NCBI GenBank assembly: GCA_038065715.1
Contig: JBBTQL010000006.1
Span: forward strand, 2,127-66,126
DNA length: 64,000 nucleotides
Source of the DNA: Patescibacteria group bacterium
GTDB lineage: Bacteria; Patescibacteriota; Minisyncoccia; Minisyncoccales; Staskawiczbacteraceae
Direction of reading: 5' to 3'
This document shows positions 2,021 to 60,830 of this stretch, one piece after another. Numbering within the stretch: the first letter of the stretch is position 1; every line of letters starts with the position of its first letter. Position numbers and translations under genes: made by a program. The notes under the pieces are model-generated. The model saw only the letters and a program-made list of their open reading frames with translations. It was not told where the DNA came from and ran no database searches.

Positions 2021-3166
2021 ATGAGAAAAAATATAGTTATAGAGGATAAAAAAGAAGCGGAGCTTATTAAAGAATTAGAGGCCAGAAAAGATGTTAAAGC
2101 AGAGAGAATAAAAAGGCTTTTAAAACTACCCGACCTGACAAAAAAAGACAATTCTTCTGTAAAAATTTTGGTTGACCAAATAATAAATTTGCCGCGATTC
2201 AAAGATTTTGATTTGGTTGATTTTCCAAGAATTGTAACAGTAGAACAAAATTTTGATGTTTTAAATGCGCCAAAAGACCATCCAAGCCGTAGAGAATCAG
2301 ATACTTATTACTTAGACGATTCTAATATTTTACGCACGCAGACAACAGCAATGTGGCTGTTTTATCTAAGAAATCCAGAAGTGCTAGAGAGATTAAAGAA
2401 TGAGGGCGAAGTAAAAGCATTGTCATCTGGAATAGTGTTTCGCAAAGACGAAATTGACAAAAAGCATTTTCCGGCCTTTCACCAAATAGATGGATTGTTA
2501 ATCTGCAAAAAAGATAAAAAAGTTATAACCTTGGATGATTTAAAAGAGGTTGAAGTTGAAATGACAAAAAGCATTTTTGGCAGTGATGTTGAATACAGAT
2601 TTTTAGTTGACTCGTTTCCGTTTACCGATCCATCAGTGCAAATTGAAATTAAATTTAATGGAGATTGGATGGAGGTAGTCGGTTCTGGTTTGGTGCATAA
2701 TCAAGTTTTGAAAAATTTTGGACTGGATCCGGAAATTTATAACGGCTGGGCATTTGGATTTGGAGTGGAGAGATTGGCAATGATAAAAATGCAAATTCCA
2801 GATATTAGAATTTTATGGTCGGATGACTCAAGAATAACCAGCCAGTTTAAAGATATAAACAGCAAATATAAAGAAGTAAGCAAGTATCCTGAAACCTCAA
2901 GAGACATTTCATTTGTTATTGATAAAAATATAAATTTAAATAATTATTACGAAATTGTGCGAGATTATGCCGAAAATTTAATTGAAGAAGTAAAGCTTGT
3001 TGACGAGTATGAAGACGAAACAAAATTTGGCAAAGATAAAAAAAGTTATACATTTAGAATAATTTACCGTTCTCCGGAAAGAACTTTAACTAATGAAGAA
3101 ATAAACAAAATCCAGGAAGAAATTCGTGAAAAAACGAAAACAGACTTAAGCGCAATTTTAAGGTAA
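2021..3166 (+). CDS. pheS: Phenylalanine--tRNA ligase, single-chain form: alpha-type catalytic core fused to a C-terminal FDX-ACB anticodon-binding domain
   Basis: Class II core motifs ([42 protein letters not shown]). C-terminal module [14 protein letters not shown]...[22 protein letters not shown]. Collinear with mitochondrial FARS2 as I recall it. No pheT follows. Confidence 0.9.
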   Translation: [381 protein letters not shown]

Positions 3167-3170
3167 AATA

Positions 3171-3779
3171 ATGAATTACGCTTTCATTGATTTTCAAAAT
3201 ACAGATAATACCACAAAACAATTGCTTGGTTTTTCGATTAATTGGAAAAAATTGTACGATTTTTTAAAAAATAATTGGAAATGCGAAAAAGTTTTTTTGT
3301 ATATTGGTGTTGATGATAGAGATATGGAAGCAGGAGAATTATCAGAAGAACTAAAGAGTATCGGATTTGTTGTTAGAGGCAAAAAATTGTTTTCGTATAA
3401 AAATAGGGATAAGGAAATAAATGTTTCTTGTTCTAAATGTGGGAACAAATTTATAGAAAAAATTGATATGGGTTATAACAAAAAAGCTAACTGCGATGTT
3501 GATTTGACTGTTGATGCTATGGATTTGGCCCAAAAAGATAATGTGTTCTATATTTTTACTGGAGACGGGGATTTTGAATTTTTAATCAGAAATGTTATTT
3601 TAAAAGAAGTTAAAACTTATATTATATCCAGCGCCAGAAAAATAAAAACAAGAGGGCACAGATATTTTACTTCGCGTCTTTCAAAAAAATTGAGAATACT
3701 GGCAATGGAAAACAAAGACAAGGTTTATATTATTGAAATAAACAATTTACGAATGAAATTTGCGAAAGATATCCGCTAA
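3171..3779 (+). CDS. NYN/LabA-like (PIN-like) domain protein with an inserted zinc-ribbon-like segment
   Basis: FIDFQN ... CDVDLTVDAMD ... FTGDGDFEFLI motif set. CSKCGNKF insert. Confidence 0.7.
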   Translation: MNYAFIDFQNTDNTTKQLLGFSINWKKLYDFLKNNWKCEKVFLYIGVDDRDMEAGELSEELKSIGFVVRGKKLFSYKNRDKEINVSCSKCGNKFIEKIDMGYNKKANCDVDLTVDAMDLAQKDNVFYIFTGDGDFEFLIRNVILKEVKTYIISSARKIKTRGHRYFTSRLSKKLRILAMENKDKVYIIEINNLRMKFAKDIR

Positions 3780-3893
3780 TAAAAAAAAGGAAAAGGACAC
3801 GAAGCGTGGCCTTTTCTAATGATGAGTTCAGTATATCAAAATAAAAGGCCTTGTCAAGAGGCGTAAACTATTTATAATATTTAGTATAAAAAC

Positions 3894-4490
3894 ATGAGCG
3901 AAACACCGCGAGAACAAGAGTCAATTTTACCGGATAAAGTTTTAGAAGTTGAACCGATAGAAGTGAGCAGGGGTACTATTATAAAAATAAGAGAACAAAT
4001 TAAGGAATTAGTTGAAGCTCCCCTTTTGAGTGCGTGCGAGGAGTTATATGATAAAAATATTCAAACATCCGGTACAAGTGCAAACAAAAAAGATATTGAG
4101 AGCCATATGCCTGGTTATATAGTAATAGTTTTTGATTCTTTATCTGACAAAAATAAAGAGATAGCCAAGCAATTTGGTAAAGCAGAAAAATTTGAATTTA
4201 GCGATGACCCATGTCAGGTAAAAATTGAGATTCCGTTAAACGAAAATAGTTCTGCAGAAGAAATAAAGACTTATGCTGAAGCAGTTGCTCATAAGTTTTT
4301 TAAACAAAGAATGACTTGGGCGCCACATTTTACAATAGAAGAATTGAGAGAGGCTTATGCGGGAGATCCTAATGACGAATCTATTACAATAGAAGAGCTT
4401 GAAGATACATATTATTATGATCCACAAAGTAAATTATTCTATTTAAGTGAAGAGCATTTTAGAAAAGTTAACGAAAAAATTGAAGATTAA
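3894..4490 (+). CDS. Hypothetical acidic protein
   Basis: Long ORF preceded by TTGTCA-N16-TATAAT (3851-3879). No motif recognised. Confidence 0.55.
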   Translation: MSETPREQESILPDKVLEVEPIEVSRGTIIKIREQIKELVEAPLLSACEELYDKNIQTSGTSANKKDIESHMPGYIVIVFDSLSDKNKEIAKQFGKAEKFEFSDDPCQVKIEIPLNENSSAEEIKTYAEAVAHKFFKQRMTWAPHFTIEELREAYAGDPNDESITIEELEDTYYYDPQSKLFYLSEEHFRKVNEKIED

Positions 4491-8269: not shown

Positions 8270-9205
8270 ATGGACGTTATATGGAATCTAACACGAGTTT
8301 GTCCTTGGAATTGTAGGATTTGTTGTGTTTCTGCTGTTTATGCCACAGGCAAAACAAAACACAAGGTCGTCACTGCCCAAAAAGAATCAGGCAAAGAACT
8401 AAGTCTCGCTGAGAAATTAACTGTGTTAAGATTATTAGTCGACAGAAACTTTGAAATAGATTTTTCTGGCGGAGACCCGTTGTATTATGAAGAAGATTTT
8501 TTTGTGGTAGAACAAGCTACTCAATGGCTACCATCAAAGAAAATCGGAATTAGTATGACAGGCAGTGAAATTACTGAAGCAAAAATAAACCTTCTTAGAA
8601 AGGTCGGCGTTGTGGAATTCACTTTGGATAATTTGCCAAAAACAAAAAATCCATTTCGCCCGAATGATTTTAATGTTGCATCGATGAAGGCTATGAGAAA
8701 ATGTGTCGCAAACGGAATAAGAGTAAGGGCTATTACAGTTTTATATTCTAAAACAATGCCTGAGAGAAACCTCATAGATTTGTATTCTTGGTTGTGCAAG
8801 AATAATGTTTCAGAATGGGAACTGCTTAGGTATTATCCTATTGGAAGGGGCAGAAATCTGGCAAAAAATTTACCTTCTAAGGAAAAGTACTTGGAGGTAA
8901 TGAGATTTTTAAGGAGTCTTCACGGCTCGACTAGAGTCTTTTTTCAACATTCATTAAATCTGTTGGAGAAAGACATATCTTGCCCAGCAGTAACAAATTC
9001 GTTTGGCATTCTGCCAGATGGCACAGTGGTTGCTTGCGCATGGGCTTTAGACAGAAACTGTTTTCCATTAAGTGAATTCTATCTTGGAAAACTTCCAGAG
9101 GAAGACATTGATAGTATTATTGCAAGGGCACAACAAAAGCCAATGTACTGCAAAACAGCAAATTTTTGCAGAACAATGGTAGAATTAGAAAAAGGAGAAA
9201 AATAA
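8270..9205 (+). CDS. Radical SAM protein with SPASM/twitch-like C-terminal Cys cluster
   Basis: CPWNCRIC (CX3CX2C). GGDPL. C-terminal CPAVTNSFGILPDGTVVACAW...C...C pattern. Confidence 0.8.
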   Translation: MDVIWNLTRVCPWNCRICCVSAVYATGKTKHKVVTAQKESGKELSLAEKLTVLRLLVDRNFEIDFSGGDPLYYEEDFFVVEQATQWLPSKKIGISMTGSEITEAKINLLRKVGVVEFTLDNLPKTKNPFRPNDFNVASMKAMRKCVANGIRVRAITVLYSKTMPERNLIDLYSWLCKNNVSEWELLRYYPIGRGRNLAKNLPSKEKYLEVMRFLRSLHGSTRVFFQHSLNLLEKDISCPAVTNSFGILPDGTVVACAWALDRNCFPLSEFYLGKLPEEDIDSIIARAQQKPMYCKTANFCRTMVELEKGEK

Positions 9206-9206
9206 C

Positions 9207-10007
9207 ATGGTTATCAAAAGTATCAGGTGCAAAACCCTGCTAACCAAGAGCAGATTGCCAGAAGTTGATTATTGCATAAACCCCTATATAGGGTGCTTGC
9301 ATGGATGTGTTTATTGCTACGCCAGATTTATGAGGAGATTTGCCAAGCATACCGAAAGGTGGGGAGATTTTTTGGATGTAAAAATCAATGCTCCTGAGGT
9401 TTTGGAGAAGGAGCTATCAAGACATCCTAAAAGAGGAATAGTGTTGCTGGGCAGTGTTACTGATGCTTATCAACCAGTCGAAAGGAAATATAAAATCACT
9501 CGATCTGTCTTACAGGTATTGTTAAAGCATAATTTTCCTGTTTCCATACTAACCAAATCAGATTTGGTGGTTAGGGATATGGATGTGCTAAAACAGTTAA
9601 AGGATTGCGAAGTCGGTTTGACCATCACAACTTTGGATGGAGGGGTCGCGTCCGATTTCGAACCTCGCACTAATAGTCCGCAGGAGAGAATAGACGCCTT
9701 GAAAGCGCTCCATTCGGCAGGAATAAAAACCTATGCATTTATAGGGCCAATCCTGCCAGGCTTTACGAACCTTAAGGCAATTTTTTCTGAATTAAACGGT
9801 AGAGTTGATTTTGTAATGGCCGAAGTCCTGAATACCAGATGTGGTAACCGGGAAGATATTAAAAAAATAATCGGGGAAAAGTATACCGAATTATTGCCTC
9901 TCTATAACGATGGTTTCAGTAAGGAATACTGGGCTCAAATTGAGAGGGAAGCAAAAGCGTTAAGCGCAAAATTTAGCATACCCTTGAAAGGATTTTACTA
10001 TCATTAA
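9207..10007 (+). CDS. Radical SAM protein, SplB/COG1533-like (DNA photolyase-like family)
   Basis: NPYIGCLHGCVYCYARF context typical of that family. Translationally coupled to the upstream radical SAM gene (1-nt gap). Confidence 0.8.
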   Translation: MVIKSIRCKTLLTKSRLPEVDYCINPYIGCLHGCVYCYARFMRRFAKHTERWGDFLDVKINAPEVLEKELSRHPKRGIVLLGSVTDAYQPVERKYKITRSVLQVLLKHNFPVSILTKSDLVVRDMDVLKQLKDCEVGLTITTLDGGVASDFEPRTNSPQERIDALKALHSAGIKTYAFIGPILPGFTNLKAIFSELNGRVDFVMAEVLNTRCGNREDIKKIIGEKYTELLPLYNDGFSKEYWAQIEREAKALSAKFSIPLKGFYYH

Positions 10008-45765: not shown

Positions 45766-46773
45766 ATGTTTAACTCAAAAATTGCAATTGATTTAGGAAC
45801 CTGCAACTCTCTGGTTTATGTCCAGGGCAAGGGGATAGTTTTACACGAGCCTTCGGTTGTTGCTATTTCTTTAACTGACAACAAAATTTTAGCAGTTGGC
45901 GCGCGGGCAAAAGAAATGATAGGCCGCACGCCAGATGACATTAGAGTTTACAGGCCGTTAAAAGACGGGGTTATAGCTGATTATAAAGTAACGCAGGCAA
46001 TGATACGTTATTTTATTGCAAAAACAGCAAGCAGATTCAGGTTTTTTAAACCAGAATTAGTGATATCTGTTCCTGCTGGAATTACCAGCACTGAAAGAAG
46101 GGCTGTTATTGAGGCGGCTCTGTCTTCTGGAGCCAAGCAGGCTTTTGTGGCAAAAGAGCCAATATTGGCTGCAATTGGAGCTGGCATACCAATTAACTCG
46201 TGTTCAGGCCATATGGTAATTGATATTGGCGGAGGCACTTCAGAAGTTGCTGTTATTTCGCTTGGCGGAATTGTAACTTCTCATTCTGTAAGGGTGGCTG
46301 GCGACAAAATAGATACAGCTATAGCCGAATATATAAAAAAGAAATATAATTTGGCTATTGGCACGCAATCAGCAGAAGAAATAAAAATAAAAATTGGCAC
46401 AGCGCTTCCTCAAAGAGAACCAAAGTATTTGGAAATTCAGGGAAGAGATTTAATTTTAGGTTTACCAAGAAATATTAAAATATCAAGCAATGAAGTTTGC
46501 GAGGCAATTTCTGATGTTTTGGTTGAAATAGTGCAAGCCGCTAAAATTGTTTTATCTGAAACACCGCCAGAGCTTTCTGCTGATATAATGAATAAAGGAA
46601 TTGTTGTTGCCGGCGGCGGAGCGCTTTTGCCAAAAATAAATGAATTGATTGCTCAAAGCACAGGAGTGCCATGTTTTGTTGCAGAAGAGCCGCTGTTCTG
46701 CGTAGTAAAGGGAACAGGATTGGTTTTAGAGCATTTAGAGGAGTATAAAAAAGTGGTAATGAGTAAAAAATAA
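45766..46773 (+). CDS. mreB: Rod shape-determining protein MreB (paralog 1)
   Basis: IAIDLGTCNSLVYV, VIDIGGGTSEVAVISLGG, VVAGGGALL. Confidence 0.9.
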   Translation: MFNSKIAIDLGTCNSLVYVQGKGIVLHEPSVVAISLTDNKILAVGARAKEMIGRTPDDIRVYRPLKDGVIADYKVTQAMIRYFIAKTASRFRFFKPELVISVPAGITSTERRAVIEAALSSGAKQAFVAKEPILAAIGAGIPINSCSGHMVIDIGGGTSEVAVISLGGIVTSHSVRVAGDKIDTAIAEYIKKKYNLAIGTQSAEEIKIKIGTALPQREPKYLEIQGRDLILGLPRNIKISSNEVCEAISDVLVEIVQAAKIVLSETPPELSADIMNKGIVVAGGGALLPKINELIAQSTGVPCFVAEEPLFCVVKGTGLVLEHLEEYKKVVMSKK

Positions 46774-50704: not shown

Positions 50705-51766
50705 ATGTTTAAAAAACTTTTTTCATTTTTGTCAGTAGATATGGCGATTGATTTGGGTACTGCCAACTCTTTGGTTTACGTAAAAGACAGGGGAATAATT
50801 ATAAATGAGCCGTCTGTTGTTGCTGTTAATAACAAAACAGGCCAAATTTTAGCTATTGGAGAAGAAGCAAAAAAAATGGTTGGCCGCACGCCTTCCTATA
50901 TTACTGCTACAAGGCCATTGGTTAATGGAGTTATTTCTGACTTTGAGGTCACAGAGCAGATGTTAAAATATTTTATTGAAAAAGCGGCTTCGGGCAGTAA
51001 AAAAATGTTTGGAATAGGCCACATGCCAAGAATAATAATTGGAATTCCTTGCGGAGTTACAGAAGTTGAAAGAAAAGCGGTAAGGGATGCCGCAAAAAAT
51101 GCCGGAGCAAGAACAGTGTTTTTAATTGAAGAGCCTTTGGCTTCAGCTATTGGGGCAAAACTTTCCATTCAAGATGCCGGGGGAAACTTCATAGTTGATA
51201 TTGGCGGAGGGACAACAGAAGTGGCAGTTATTTCGCTTGGCGGAATAGTTGCTTTTAGGTCTTTAAGAATTGCCGGAGACAAGCTTAATGACGATATTGT
51301 GCAATTTGCCCAAAAAGAATATAAGTTATTAATTGGCGAAAGAACAGCTGAACTTATTAAAATAAATATTGGTTCTGCTATGCCCCTAAAAGAAAAGAAA
51401 GAAATGCCTATGCGGGGAAGAAATTTAGTTACAGGTTTGCCCGAAGAAGTTGTTATTTTTAATGATGACGTCCAAAGAGCTTTGGAAAGATCGGTAAAAC
51501 AGATATTAGCTGCTATTAAAGTGACAATTGAAGAAACTCCTCCAGAGCTTTTGGCAGATGTAATGACAAATGGCATTTATTTGGCTGGCGGAGGCAGTTT
51601 GCTGAGAGGATTGGATGCTTTAATTTCAAAAGAAACAAAAATGCCATGTAAAATTATTGATGATCCATTAACCTCGGTTGTAAGGGGAGCTGGAATGGCT
51701 TTGGAAAACCTTGAAACATTATCTGAAGTAATGTCAAAAGACGAAGACAGCGGCTTATTTGCGTGA
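50705..51766 (+). CDS. mreB: Rod shape-determining protein MreB (paralog 2)
   Basis: MAIDLGTANSLVYV, IVDIGGGTTEVAVISLGG, YLAGGGSLLRGL. Confidence 0.9.
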   Translation: MFKKLFSFLSVDMAIDLGTANSLVYVKDRGIIINEPSVVAVNNKTGQILAIGEEAKKMVGRTPSYITATRPLVNGVISDFEVTEQMLKYFIEKAASGSKKMFGIGHMPRIIIGIPCGVTEVERKAVRDAAKNAGARTVFLIEEPLASAIGAKLSIQDAGGNFIVDIGGGTTEVAVISLGGIVAFRSLRIAGDKLNDDIVQFAQKEYKLLIGERTAELIKINIGSAMPLKEKKEMPMRGRNLVTGLPEEVVIFNDDVQRALERSVKQILAAIKVTIEETPPELLADVMTNGIYLAGGGSLLRGLDALISKETKMPCKIIDDPLTSVVRGAGMALENLETLSEVMSKDEDSGLFA

Positions 51767-54977: not shown

Positions 54978-56579
54978 TTACAGTATGCGAGTGTGGTTCA
55001 ATGGTAGAATGATTCCTTCCCAAGGAATAGACGGGGGTTCGATTCCCCTCACTCGCTCCGTAATAAAACTTTTTTCTCTTTTCCCGACGAATTCGCGGGC
55101 GGCCAAAACGGCCGCCCATTGCGTTTTGAGAGGGGAATTCGTTTCGCTCGGCGCGCTGCGGCGCGCCTCGCGGTTTTGCAAAATGAGGTTCGAGCCGAAG
55201 ATTTCTTTGGTGGCGACCTTTTTCGCAAAAAGGTCGCTGTCGTTTGCGATTTTATCTATGGATTCCGCTTCCTTTATCCAATTTCTCATCGGTTCGAGCC
55301 AGCCAATTTGCTTTTGTTCAAGATGAGATATTTTCTCCTCCAGCGACTTTTTCTCGGAAAGCAATTTTGCTTTTTCAGTTCGGTAGATTTCTCTTTCAAT
55401 ATCCTGTTCTAAATAACCGTCTAAAAGTCGCTGGAGCTTAACGGAAATTTCCACAATTCTTTTTTTGTTTTCTTGAACAAAAGCGATTAAGGATTGGGCG
55501 GTTTTGGTTTTGTCTTTTTCCAGCATTTTATTCAATTCGTCCGCCCAATCTTTTTTCAAAGAAAATTTTTGAAGCAAAAGCGAAATTTGTTTATTCAAAA
55601 CTTCTTGGCGAATGCAAGGTTCGTTGCATTTTGTAATTTTTGATTTATGAGTACAGTGGTAGTAAGTGTAGTAATGTTGGTTTCCGTTTTTTTGTTTTTT
55701 AACCTTGTATTCGCCGGTTATTGCCATTCCGCAATTTCCGCAACGAAGTAGTCCGCAAAATGCTTGCGGTTCATTCTTTTGTTTGTGGTGAGGTCTGCCT
55801 CTTTGCTTTAAAATTTCCTGAACTCTATCAAAAATTTTCTTTGAAATTATTGGCTGGTGTTTACCTTCGTGTGTTTCGCCAGCATAACGGAATAATCCGA
55901 CATAGAACGGATTGGAAAGGATAAAAGAAATTCTGTCTCGTTTTAATAGTTTTCCGCTTCTCGCGCTAATTCCTTGTTGCGCCAAAAAGTTAGAAATATC
56001 TTCAAGACGAGAATTGTTTTCGGCGTACAATTCAAACATTTTTCGGATTATTGGCGATTTCTTTTTATCTACAACTACATTTTTAATTCTCGGGTCGTTT
56101 AAATATCCTATCGGGGCAAAGCCTGGATATTCGCCTCGTTTAACTTTTTGGCGCAAACCTCGTTTTGTGTTTTCGGAAAGACTGTCAACATAGTATTTGC
56201 TTTGCCCGAAAGCAATATTTAACATAAATTTTCCCTGCGGAGTTGATTCAAACCAGAATGTTGGAAATTTCAGCATCGTTAAATGCCCGCAGTCCAAAAG
56301 ATAAATGATTTTCCCTCCGTCAACAGAATTGCGCGCCAGACGGTCGGGGTGCCACGCCAAAATTCCTTGGGCTTGGCCTTTTTCAATTCGTTTTATCATT
56401 TCGTTAAAAATCGGGCGGCCGGGAATTTTGGCTGATTGTTTTTCAATCAGCTCCTCAAGTATTTCAAGGTTTTCCTGTTTGGCAAAAGCGCGCAATTCTG
56501 CAATTTGGTCCTCAATAGAACGAACTTGTTTGTCCTCAACATCTGTGGATTTGCGGGCATACAAAAAGAATTTTTGCAT
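54978..56579 (-). CDS. Large serine recombinase
   Basis: N-terminal resolvase domain (YARKSTDVEDKQVRSIEDQ, catalytic Ser context; HPDRLARN). Recombinase domain. Zinc ribbon (CGNCG...HC). Coiled coil. The last ~70 codons are encoded by inverted repeat a and by the antisense of tRNA-Gly. Confidence 0.85.
   Translation of the reverse strand: MQKFFLYARKSTDVEDKQVRSIEDQIAELRAFAKQENLEILEELIEKQSAKIPGRPIFNEMIKRIEKGQAQGILAWHPDRLARNSVDGGKIIYLLDCGHLTMLKFPTFWFESTPQGKFMLNIAFGQSKYYVDSLSENTKRGLRQKVKRGEYPGFAPIGYLNDPRIKNVVVDKKKSPIIRKMFELYAENNSRLEDISNFLAQQGISARSGKLLKRDRISFILSNPFYVGLFRYAGETHEGKHQPIISKKIFDRVQEILKQRGRPHHKQKNEPQAFCGLLRCGNCGMAITGEYKVKKQKNGNQHYYTYYHCTHKSKITKCNEPCIRQEVLNKQISLLLQKFSLKKDWADELNKMLEKDKTKTAQSLIAFVQENKKRIVEISVKLQRLLDGYLEQDIEREIYRTEKAKLLSEKKSLEEKISHLEQKQIGWLEPMRNWIKEAESIDKIANDSDLFAKKVATKEIFGSNLILQNREARRSAPSETNSPLKTQWAAVLAAREFVGKREKSFITERVRGIEPPSIPWEGIILPLNHTRIL
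54987..55057 (+). tRNA. tRNA-Gly (anticodon CCC)
   Basis: Manual cloverleaf: GCGAGTG TG GTTC AATGGTA GAAT G ATTCC TTCCCAA GGAAT AGAC GGGGG TTCGATT CCCCT CACTCGC T. Confidence 0.9.
55056..55190 (+). repeat. Inverted repeat a (135 nt), left end of the element
   Basis: Perfect reverse complement of 56794-56928, checked base by base. Confidence 0.95.
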
Positions 56580-60488: not shown

Positions 60489-60682
60489 ATTTTTTTACCT
60501 AAATAAATTCGCAAAGTTTAGCCACTGCTGGCGAGACTACAAATTTAAAAAAGCAATTTTAAATTATTTAATTATATAACTTGCTCTAAAATTGTACAAC
60601 TTATGCACTTGCCTGTGGCGTAGAAACACAAAGCCCGCCGCTAGACCGAGACTTGCACCTCCCATACCCTTTCGGATATAGA

Positions 60683-60734
60683 CCACGAACATGGAGTCTG
60701 AACGACGGGTTCAGTATGTTCGTGGAATTTTTTT
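60683..60734. other. Long hairpin (10-bp outer and 6-bp inner stems) with a T-run on the + strand, inside the cargo-gene leader
   Basis: ccacgaacat ... ctgaac gacgg gttcag ... atgttcgtgg aattttttt. Confidence 0.5.
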
Positions 60735-60830
60735 GCCATGCTCAAAAATTTTAATTCTTGAGTTTAGGCAGTCAATATTTAATTGTTAAATTATTATACC
60801 AAAGAAAATAAGAAAGGTGAAGTGAGCAAA

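Follow-up and report, generated by a model that had tools for sequence, protein, structure and literature searches.

How does an ultra-small groundwater bacterium of the Parcubacteria group, within the candidate phyla radiation (CPR), attach phenylalanine to its tRNA? The question is raised by a gene at positions 2021..3166 (+ strand) of a 64,000-nt stretch from a 'Patescibacteria group bacterium' (GenBank assembly GCA_038065715.1, contig JBBTQL010000006.1, positions 2,127 to 66,126), which we analysed as a whole and call the window. According to a 2010 review, every known prokaryote has the heterotetrameric phenylalanyl-tRNA synthetase (PheRS), and the mitochondrial enzyme is the only monomeric form of this class II synthetase (PMC3275996). 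The window gene encodes a catalytic module and an anticodon-binding domain on a single chain of 381 amino acids (aa). Here we argue that it is very probably a working single-chain PheRS and the housekeeping PheRS of its host, and that it has most likely taken the place of the proofreading enzyme of four subunits.

The open reading frame begins with ATG and comprises 381 codons and a stop; all of the parts given below lie on the + strand. The first 45 residues (2021..2155), which form two helices in our AlphaFold2 model (aa 10–21 and 25–35), stand where canonical PheS has a coiled-coil domain of ∼100 aa, and R32, P37 and L39 of this region are invariant among the fused CPR relatives of the protein (the CPR fused clade). 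They are followed by the catalytic module of a class II Phe enzyme (aa 46–276, 2156..2848; PF01409 tRNA-synt_2d, E = 8.6e-60), a junction (aa 277–286, 2849..2878) and a ferredoxin-fold anticodon-binding domain of the B8 or FDX-ACB type (aa 287–381, 2879..3163; PF03147, E = 2.3e-26). This C-terminal domain is equivalent to domain B8 of the beta subunit because aa 271–381 align to the very end of the bacterial PheT model TIGR00472 (its last 109 positions, 690–798 of 798, E = 1.7e-24). Pfam finds neither the N-terminal domain of PheS (PF02912, Phe_tRNA-synt_N) nor the B3/B4 editing module (PF03483) in the 381-aa protein. The original prediction for this locus, a catalytic core fused to a C-terminal B8-like domain and devoid of the beta-subunit editing site, is thus borne out by the reading frame and its domain content.

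Set beside the canonical (alpha-beta)2 enzymes, including those of other CPR bacteria (L009, L011), the core is 37–39% identical to CPR PheS and shares its motifs, and the C-terminal domain is a homologue of PheT B8 (28–31% identity), but the N-terminal coiled coil, domains B1–B7 and the editing site are all missing. The resemblance to human mitochondrial PheRS, FARS2 (3CMQ/3TUP), is closer in plan: a PheS module and a B8/FDX-ACB domain on one chain, no N-terminal coiled coil, no editing module, a junction at the same place and an FDX-ACB domain of specifically mitochondrial type. A block-by-block likeness to FARS2 had been noted at the outset; the three peptide blocks concerned are present in the translation, and the FARS2 blocks set against them appear in the HMMER alignment to 8p8x/3cmq. 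Unlike the mitochondrial enzyme, the window gene is a bacterial chromosomal housekeeping gene, and its protein falls in a separate clade (see below).

All of the motifs for phenylalanine activation are intact in the translated sequence. In the motif 2 region (aa 136–160, 2426..2500), R141, D143, D146, H149, F153, H154, Q155, D157 and G158 are invariant in the CPR fused clade, as are F199, P200, T202 and S205 of the Phe-pocket strand FPFTDPS (aa 199–205, 2615..2635) and A244, F245, G246 and R251 of the motif 3 region (aa 240–256, 2738..2788). Much of this set, namely R141, D143, H149, FHQ153–155, G158, F199-P200-x-T202...S205, the glycine-rich strand and A244-F245-G246...R251, is the same in canonical and mitochondrial enzymes. 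The sole systematic difference is D157: where the window protein has FHQxDG, a pattern also found in some phage-type single-chain sequences, canonical enzymes have FHQxEG and human mitochondrial PheRS has FHQxEA. With these parts, the class II module would form Phe-AMP and then pass Phe to tRNA-Phe, while the B8-type domain would read the GAA anticodon from the same polypeptide.

An AlphaFold2 model built from a 64-sequence alignment has a mean predicted local distance difference test score (pLDDT) of 95.1 and a predicted template modelling score (pTM) of 0.90. Its top structural matches in the PDB, over the full chain, are to apo human mitochondrial PheRS (3cmq/5mgu; TM-score 0.78–0.80, root-mean-square deviation (rmsd) ∼3 Å, 388 columns), and bacterial PheS alpha chains superpose on the core alone (TM-score 0.55, rmsd ∼2.1 Å). 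The model recovers both the fold and the closed inter-domain arrangement of the apo mitochondrial enzyme, as a prediction that depends on its training set. The rigid-body fit to the tRNA-bound open form (3TUP) is poor, at an rmsd of 19 Å, as would be expected if the anticodon-binding domain must swing upon tRNA binding, a movement proposed for human mitochondrial PheRS (PMC3275996). In the free bacterial enzyme this domain would likewise be packed on the catalytic module and would swing open to admit tRNA.

Family models are less clear-cut than the architecture. With hidden Markov models (HMMs), the protein scores 194.2 bits against canonical pheS (TIGR00468), below the cutoff of 237.45, and 260.0 bits against mitochondrial pheS_mito (TIGR00469), just above the cutoff of 258.35; this second match comes in two stretches. 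The window protein lacks an insertion in the core that divides its match to eukaryotic sequences in two. Other members of the CPR fused clade score 177–264 bits with the same model. The NCBIfam model of the 'PheS-related mystery ligase SrmL' (NF051887) covers aa 39–371 and reaches 259.2 bits, a near tie with pheS_mito that nevertheless falls short of its own cutoff of 300. The HMM assignment that had been suggested as a check therefore excludes the canonical family by cutoff, and it exceeds the mitochondrial cutoff by 1.7 bits only, virtually level with SrmL. By HMMER, the closest PDB sequences are those of human mitochondrial PheRS (8p8x/3cmq, E ∼1e-58), compared with ∼1e-42 for bacterial PheS alpha chains. 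The core taken separately is equidistant from canonical PheS (∼165 bits) and mitochondrial-type cores (∼155–164 bits), whereas an HMM of the family's FDX-ACB domain scores mitochondrial-type domains at a mean of 67 bits (maximum 79), SrmL at 34 and CPR PheT B8 at 29.

The near tie with SrmL gives some encouragement to a quite different explanation, in which a canonical pheS-pheT pair lies elsewhere in the genome and the fused protein is an extra, SrmL-like PheS-type ligase. SrmL is indeed bacterial, of similar size and built from the same two domains. True members (P0232, P0202, P0259), however, score 376–415 bits with the SrmL model, and in these three the active site is remodelled to HPYT, E[CA]G and GLA[LS]G, where the window protein has FPFT, GSG and GWAFG; its Phe-pocket motif agrees with canonical and mitochondrial enzymes, and the CPR fused clade retains every canonical Phe motif. 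We therefore reject an identity with SrmL, on the grounds of the 300-bit cutoff and the remodelled SrmL active site. The settings differ as well: the window PheRS family occurs in core housekeeping synteny, and SrmL, in the one context seen, has a reverse transcriptase and a PLD-like nuclease for neighbours. That SrmL locus (L098, 605–9741) holds SrmL itself (402 bits), two domainless proteins of ∼740 aa, an RVT_1 reverse transcriptase, a 564-aa protein and the PLD-like nuclease, and looks like a defence or mobile island.

Housekeeping status is also suggested by how widely, and where, the gene occurs. The identical protein (P0001) is found on five public contigs, including some from Hainich aquifer metagenomes and from 'Patescibacteria group bacterium', and the same organism is represented by a further assembly, GCA_964366045.1. 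The fused gene is also carried by assembly GCA_040961015.1 and by the genomes of contigs JBBTWE010000001.1 (702 kb) and JAUXUT010000149.1 (649 kb). More than 120 protein clusters are 76–87% identical to the window PheRS, nearly all of them 380–381 aa long, and clustering at 50% reduces the whole family to a handful of representatives. When one genome was scanned for each GTDB species, at least 577 species genomes proved to have confirmed relatives. The names on relatives include Staskawicz-, Nealson-, Taylor-, Moran- and Wolfebacteria, 'Paceibacterota' and 'Parcubacteria'; Staskawicz- and Moranbacteria, the two that were looked up, belong to the NCBI Parcubacteria group. The labels 'uncultured Saccharibacteria/Gammaproteobacteria/Bdellovibrionales' on TPA_asm metagenome-assembled genomes (MAGs) were not used as taxonomy. 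Public annotation of these proteins is divided between 'PheRS alpha chain' (JGI) and 'hypothetical protein' (NCBI).

Among 80 related loci (the best 80 of the at least 577 relatives, 61–80% identical), the most frequent arrangement is PheRS followed by gyrB, within the order gatC-gatA-(∼180 aa)-PheRS-gyrB-secE-nusG-rplK, with dnaA nearby in L004; the PheRS-gyrB adjacency is kept across several candidate phyla. In the window two genes intervene before gyrB (3171–4490), a 202-aa NYN-domain gene (3171–3779; Pfam E = 2.1e-12) that begins 4 nt past the PheRS stop and a domainless 198-aa gene. Both are confined to the close Hainich lineage (also L001–L003 and L039) and missing from other relatives. 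The earlier observation that the next gene is an NYN gene and not pheT is correct, but it describes a lineage-specific insertion without general relevance; a functional partnership between the two products was considered and rejected, as relatives have gyrB straight after the PheRS gene. The conserved upstream neighbour of ∼180 aa contains no editing-type domain and was likewise rejected as a trans-editing factor, because Pfam assigns no domain to it and its conservation is low, at 31–34%.

Sequence conservation of the PheRS matches that of GyrB. Between the window and its relatives L004 and L006, PheRS is 79% identical, GyrB 66–70% and a neighbouring class II aminoacyl-tRNA synthetase (aaRS) 50–54%; across 46 genomes the mean pairwise identity is 0.68 for PheRS and 0.67 for GyrB, with a Mantel correlation of r = 0.33 (P = 0.001) between their distance matrices. 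This pattern fits a mostly vertical essential gene, although the correlation with GyrB is only moderate.

Is it, then, the only PheRS of the organism? Searches of the 64 kb with the window protein, CPR PheS and CPR PheT (tblastn), together with Pfam searches of large reading frames, revealed neither a second PheS-like gene nor a PheT; neither canonical gene occurs in the 10 kb past the right end of the window or, in the 80 related loci, at a distance of up to 10 kb from the fused gene. In CPR bacteria with the canonical enzyme, pheT follows pheS by 4–9 bp, and pheS sits with thrS-infC-rpmI-rplT in a classical cluster, clpP-DUF5665-thrS-tsaC-infC-rpmI-rplT-pheS-pheT-...-tyrS-recG, which is carried by Woykebacteria (Microgenomates group), by Saccharimonadales-type genomes and by one genome of the same aquifer. 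The fused gene lies elsewhere, next to the NYN gene here and to gyrB in relatives; the window contains thrS and, within the stretch searched, no other gene of the classical cluster. Positional orthology with the old pheST locus is not convincing, with tyrS adjacent in seven and thrS nearby in seven of the 80 loci, in an order unlike the ancestral cluster.

A comparison of contigs points the same way. While the match lists for CPR canonical PheS and PheT have 40 size-matched contigs in common, as adjacent genes predict, no contig of at least 20 kb (matched by size) is shared between the retrieved canonical matches and 198 contigs with the fused gene, 21 of which span 100–702 kb, a large share of a CPR genome. 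Two size matches, at 1304 and 5057 bp, we attribute to chance; L027 is an entire 5057-bp contig without PheT. The named hosts are complementary, with the fused gene found under Parcubacteria-group names and canonical pheS/pheT in the Microgenomates group or Saccharimonadales.

The Parcubacteria are not uniform, however. In the Paceibacterales genome PMX_810_sub the canonical genes lie side by side, pheT (2046 nt) next to pheS (1062 nt). The best match of this PheT is the PheT of a 'Nealsonbacteria' genome, and the part of its gene table that we examined lists no further PF01409 or PF03147 protein (PMC10936435). The distribution of canonical and fused PheRS in Parcubacteria is thus an either/or pattern, not a class-wide loss. 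A published marker matrix (anvi'o, supplement 1 of PMC8672522), of which we used 137 genomes, all of them from the CPR, offers a genome-level view. In canonical genomes B5 and FDX-ACB share one gene, yet in 15 of these 137 genomes FDX-ACB occurs and B5 does not. None of the 15 has Phe_tRNA-synt_N, compared with 45 of the 69 that have both B5 and FDX-ACB (Fisher P = 1.7e-6). Incompleteness is not the explanation, since nine of these 15 genomes carry 94% or more of a set of 18 control markers.

Several points weigh against a single-chain enzyme as the working, sole PheRS of this bacterium, and some of them favour the explanation introduced above, a paralogue beside an intact pheS-pheT pair. The search for another PheRS covered the window, its 10-kb right flank and the related loci, and a pheS-pheT pair may lie elsewhere in the genome of this organism. 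Canonical pheT is present in some Parcubacteria, such that the two systems may co-occur in some genomes, and the marker matrix is anonymised, so that the link between its FDX-ACB-only genomes and the clade studied here is inferential; the count of 15 in 137 further depends on how sensitive the B5 HMM is to divergent PheT. In a MAG from outside the CPR, labelled 'Oligoflexia', a relative with 50% identity to the window protein occurs as an accessory gene, and genes of this clade can therefore be extras. The NCBI pipeline calls these proteins hypothetical. As regards the enzyme itself, D157 replaces a Glu of FHQxEG that we take, from the T. thermophilus structures, to contact the amino group of the substrate, and 3CMQ is part of the AlphaFold training data, so that the closed packing of the two domains in the model does not amount to independent support. 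Against the paralogue stand the sub-cutoff SrmL score, the canonical active site, the housekeeping synteny, conservation equal to that of GyrB, and the absence of shared contigs with retrieved canonical pheS/pheT, together with the existence of well-covered CPR genomes that have FDX-ACB and lack B5. We consider the paralogue very unlikely and infer that pheS and pheT are absent from the genome of this organism, the single-chain enzyme being its PheRS.

Where does such an enzyme come from? In neighbour-joining trees of the core (100 bootstraps, 12 canonical PheS sampled, long-branch effects possible), fused proteins split from all 12 canonical PheS in 100 of 100 replicates. Monophyly of the CPR fused clade is recovered in 99; the clade joins CPR canonical PheS in none and is left outside a cluster of mitochondrial and compact phage sequences in 83. 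The description of the enzyme as mitochondrial-type is accordingly supported by architecture, sequence similarity and predicted fold, but not by its position, which is outside the mitochondrial/phage clade. As these trees suggest, the single-chain enzymes make up one superfamily, of which the CPR protein represents a third branch, distinct from both the mitochondrial/huge-phage clade and SrmL.

A working PheRS could also have been born within the CPR, by an in-frame deletion running from pheS to the B8 end of pheT and unrelated to the mitochondrial event. The genes are adjacent and co-directional in other CPR bacteria, and the junction, compared with PheS C-termini, PheT B8 starts and other fused families, lies where one such deletion would place it: directly after ...SQF (aa 274–276), which aligns to the natural C-terminal ...QF of canonical PheS, and ahead of a short linker, KDINS, and the first B8 strand, KYKEVSKYP. 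The core, moreover, is no nearer to mitochondrial-type enzymes than to canonical PheS. Yet the same core never groups with CPR PheS in the bootstraps, the split between fused and canonical proteins is complete, and the FDX-ACB domain is far closer to mitochondrial-type domains than to CPR PheT B8, and we regard a convergent origin as quite unlikely. Because of these three observations the protein is, on present evidence, probably not a recent CPR-internal fusion, and the recent, independent pheS-B8 fusion that the original prediction had raised against itself is not what we find. The junction is compatible with in-frame deletion between pheS and pheT in general; one event and several are indistinguishable from it. 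Homology of the linker, which measures 5–9 residues between the end of the PheS-like core and the first B8 strand, was rejected as proof of a single fusion, as the apparent linker is mostly the first B8 strand, also present in PheT.

Single-chain PheRS genes are not confined to cells. A scan of IMG/VR yielded 49 loci (L100–L148), mostly on contigs of 200–536 kb with a few giant-virus bins, and two further copies (P0135, P0277) come from a 160-kb and a 341-kb contig that look phage-like (L017, L099). Compact enzymes of huge phages and giant viruses (∼345–370 aa) have the same architecture as the window protein, no core insertion and in some cases FHQxDG, but they reside in viral-type genomes, cluster with the mitochondrial clade and, as do all 49 IMG/VR copies, share 26–44% identity with it. 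We found no literature joining huge or jumbo phages with phenylalanyl-tRNA synthetase. In the bacterial MAG labelled Oligoflexia, the relative that belongs to the CPR fused clade (L149, 10001–11245; 414 aa) is surrounded by metabolic genes (an M20 peptidase, MR/MLE racemases, a beta-lactamase, TrmO); it reflects either an extra copy gained by horizontal transfer or a mistake in binning.

These copies raise the prospect that the CPR gene was itself acquired, from a huge phage or from a eukaryote or its organelle, and then displaced pheS-pheT. The frequency of single-chain PheRS on huge-phage-like contigs and in giant-virus bins speaks for such a transfer, as do a family mobile enough to reach the Oligoflexia MAG and the merely moderate Mantel correlation with GyrB. 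Viral copies are nonetheless divergent without exception, the CPR clade stands apart from the mitochondrial/phage clade, and the gyrB-adjacent position is kept across several candidate phyla; therefore any transfer must be ancient, and we judge this route to the CPR enzyme unlikely. The suggestion that a single-chain PheRS in a bacterium bears on the origin of the organellar enzyme is also weaker than first put, because huge phages and giant viruses have such genes too.

Elsewhere in the window, the gatA block, which precedes the PheRS gene in relatives, is relocated to 44.5–54 kb, where a serine recombinase and a tRNA-Gly gene mark its end. The gene for this large serine recombinase (54978–56579, − strand) overlaps at its 3′ end the opposite-strand tRNA-Gly(CCC) (54987–55059, +), some 0.9 kb downstream of the gatA-p180 block that marks the PheRS gene site in relatives; the overlap is a likely breakpoint of integration or rearrangement, and the gene that follows encodes an 877-aa Kre9/PG-binding surface protein. 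Two MreB paralogues (45766–46773 and 50705–51766) lie in a block murA-mreB-holB-frr-rseP-aaRS-mreB-gatCA, arranged in the same way in L004 and L006. After rplK the window has two adjoining radical SAM genes (8270–10007), where L004 and L006 have rplK followed by dCMP deaminase. A full-length match to the LOOT RNA (Rfam RF03000; 73.6 bits) lies at 60648–60770 (−), upstream of tRNA-Thr(CGU).

The proteins described here are already in public databases. Our literature searches brought up no account of a monomeric PheRS in bacteria and none of Patescibacteria that have lost pheT; in the literature that we did find, monomeric PheRS is confined to organelles. In the lineage studied here the single-chain enzyme, presumably a monomer, would have taken over from an ancestral pheS-pheT pair that other CPR groups retain, and the beta subunit would have become dispensable. 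About 1.1 kb of coding sequence would then do the work of ∼3 kb, a saving in keeping with genome reduction. One practical consequence would be that pheS and pheT marker models are systematically missed in these lineages, with an effect on estimates of genome quality. The protein, compact and confidently modelled, would also suit the biochemistry of a minimal PheRS.

More broadly, a 381-aa single-chain PheRS that has no editing site appears to be what a large radiation of bacteria, represented by at least 577 species genomes, relies on. If this is true, neither Tyr-tRNA-Phe nor meta-tyrosyl (m-Tyr)-tRNA-Phe would be hydrolysed by a B3/B4 site in these cells, and the fidelity of their phenylalanine decoding would resemble that of mitochondria. 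The origin of the organellar enzyme can now be studied with bacterial and phage relatives at hand. We put forward only tentatively, and regard as more doubtful than probable, the widest view of these data: that single-chain PheRS is not a eukaryotic invention but an old prokaryotic and viral lineage with at least three branches (Parcubacteria housekeeping, huge-phage/organellar and SrmL), that the mitochondrial enzyme was recruited from this pool rather than made by a pheS-pheT fusion in an early eukaryote, and that a whole bacterial radiation translates its Phe codons without PheRS proofreading.

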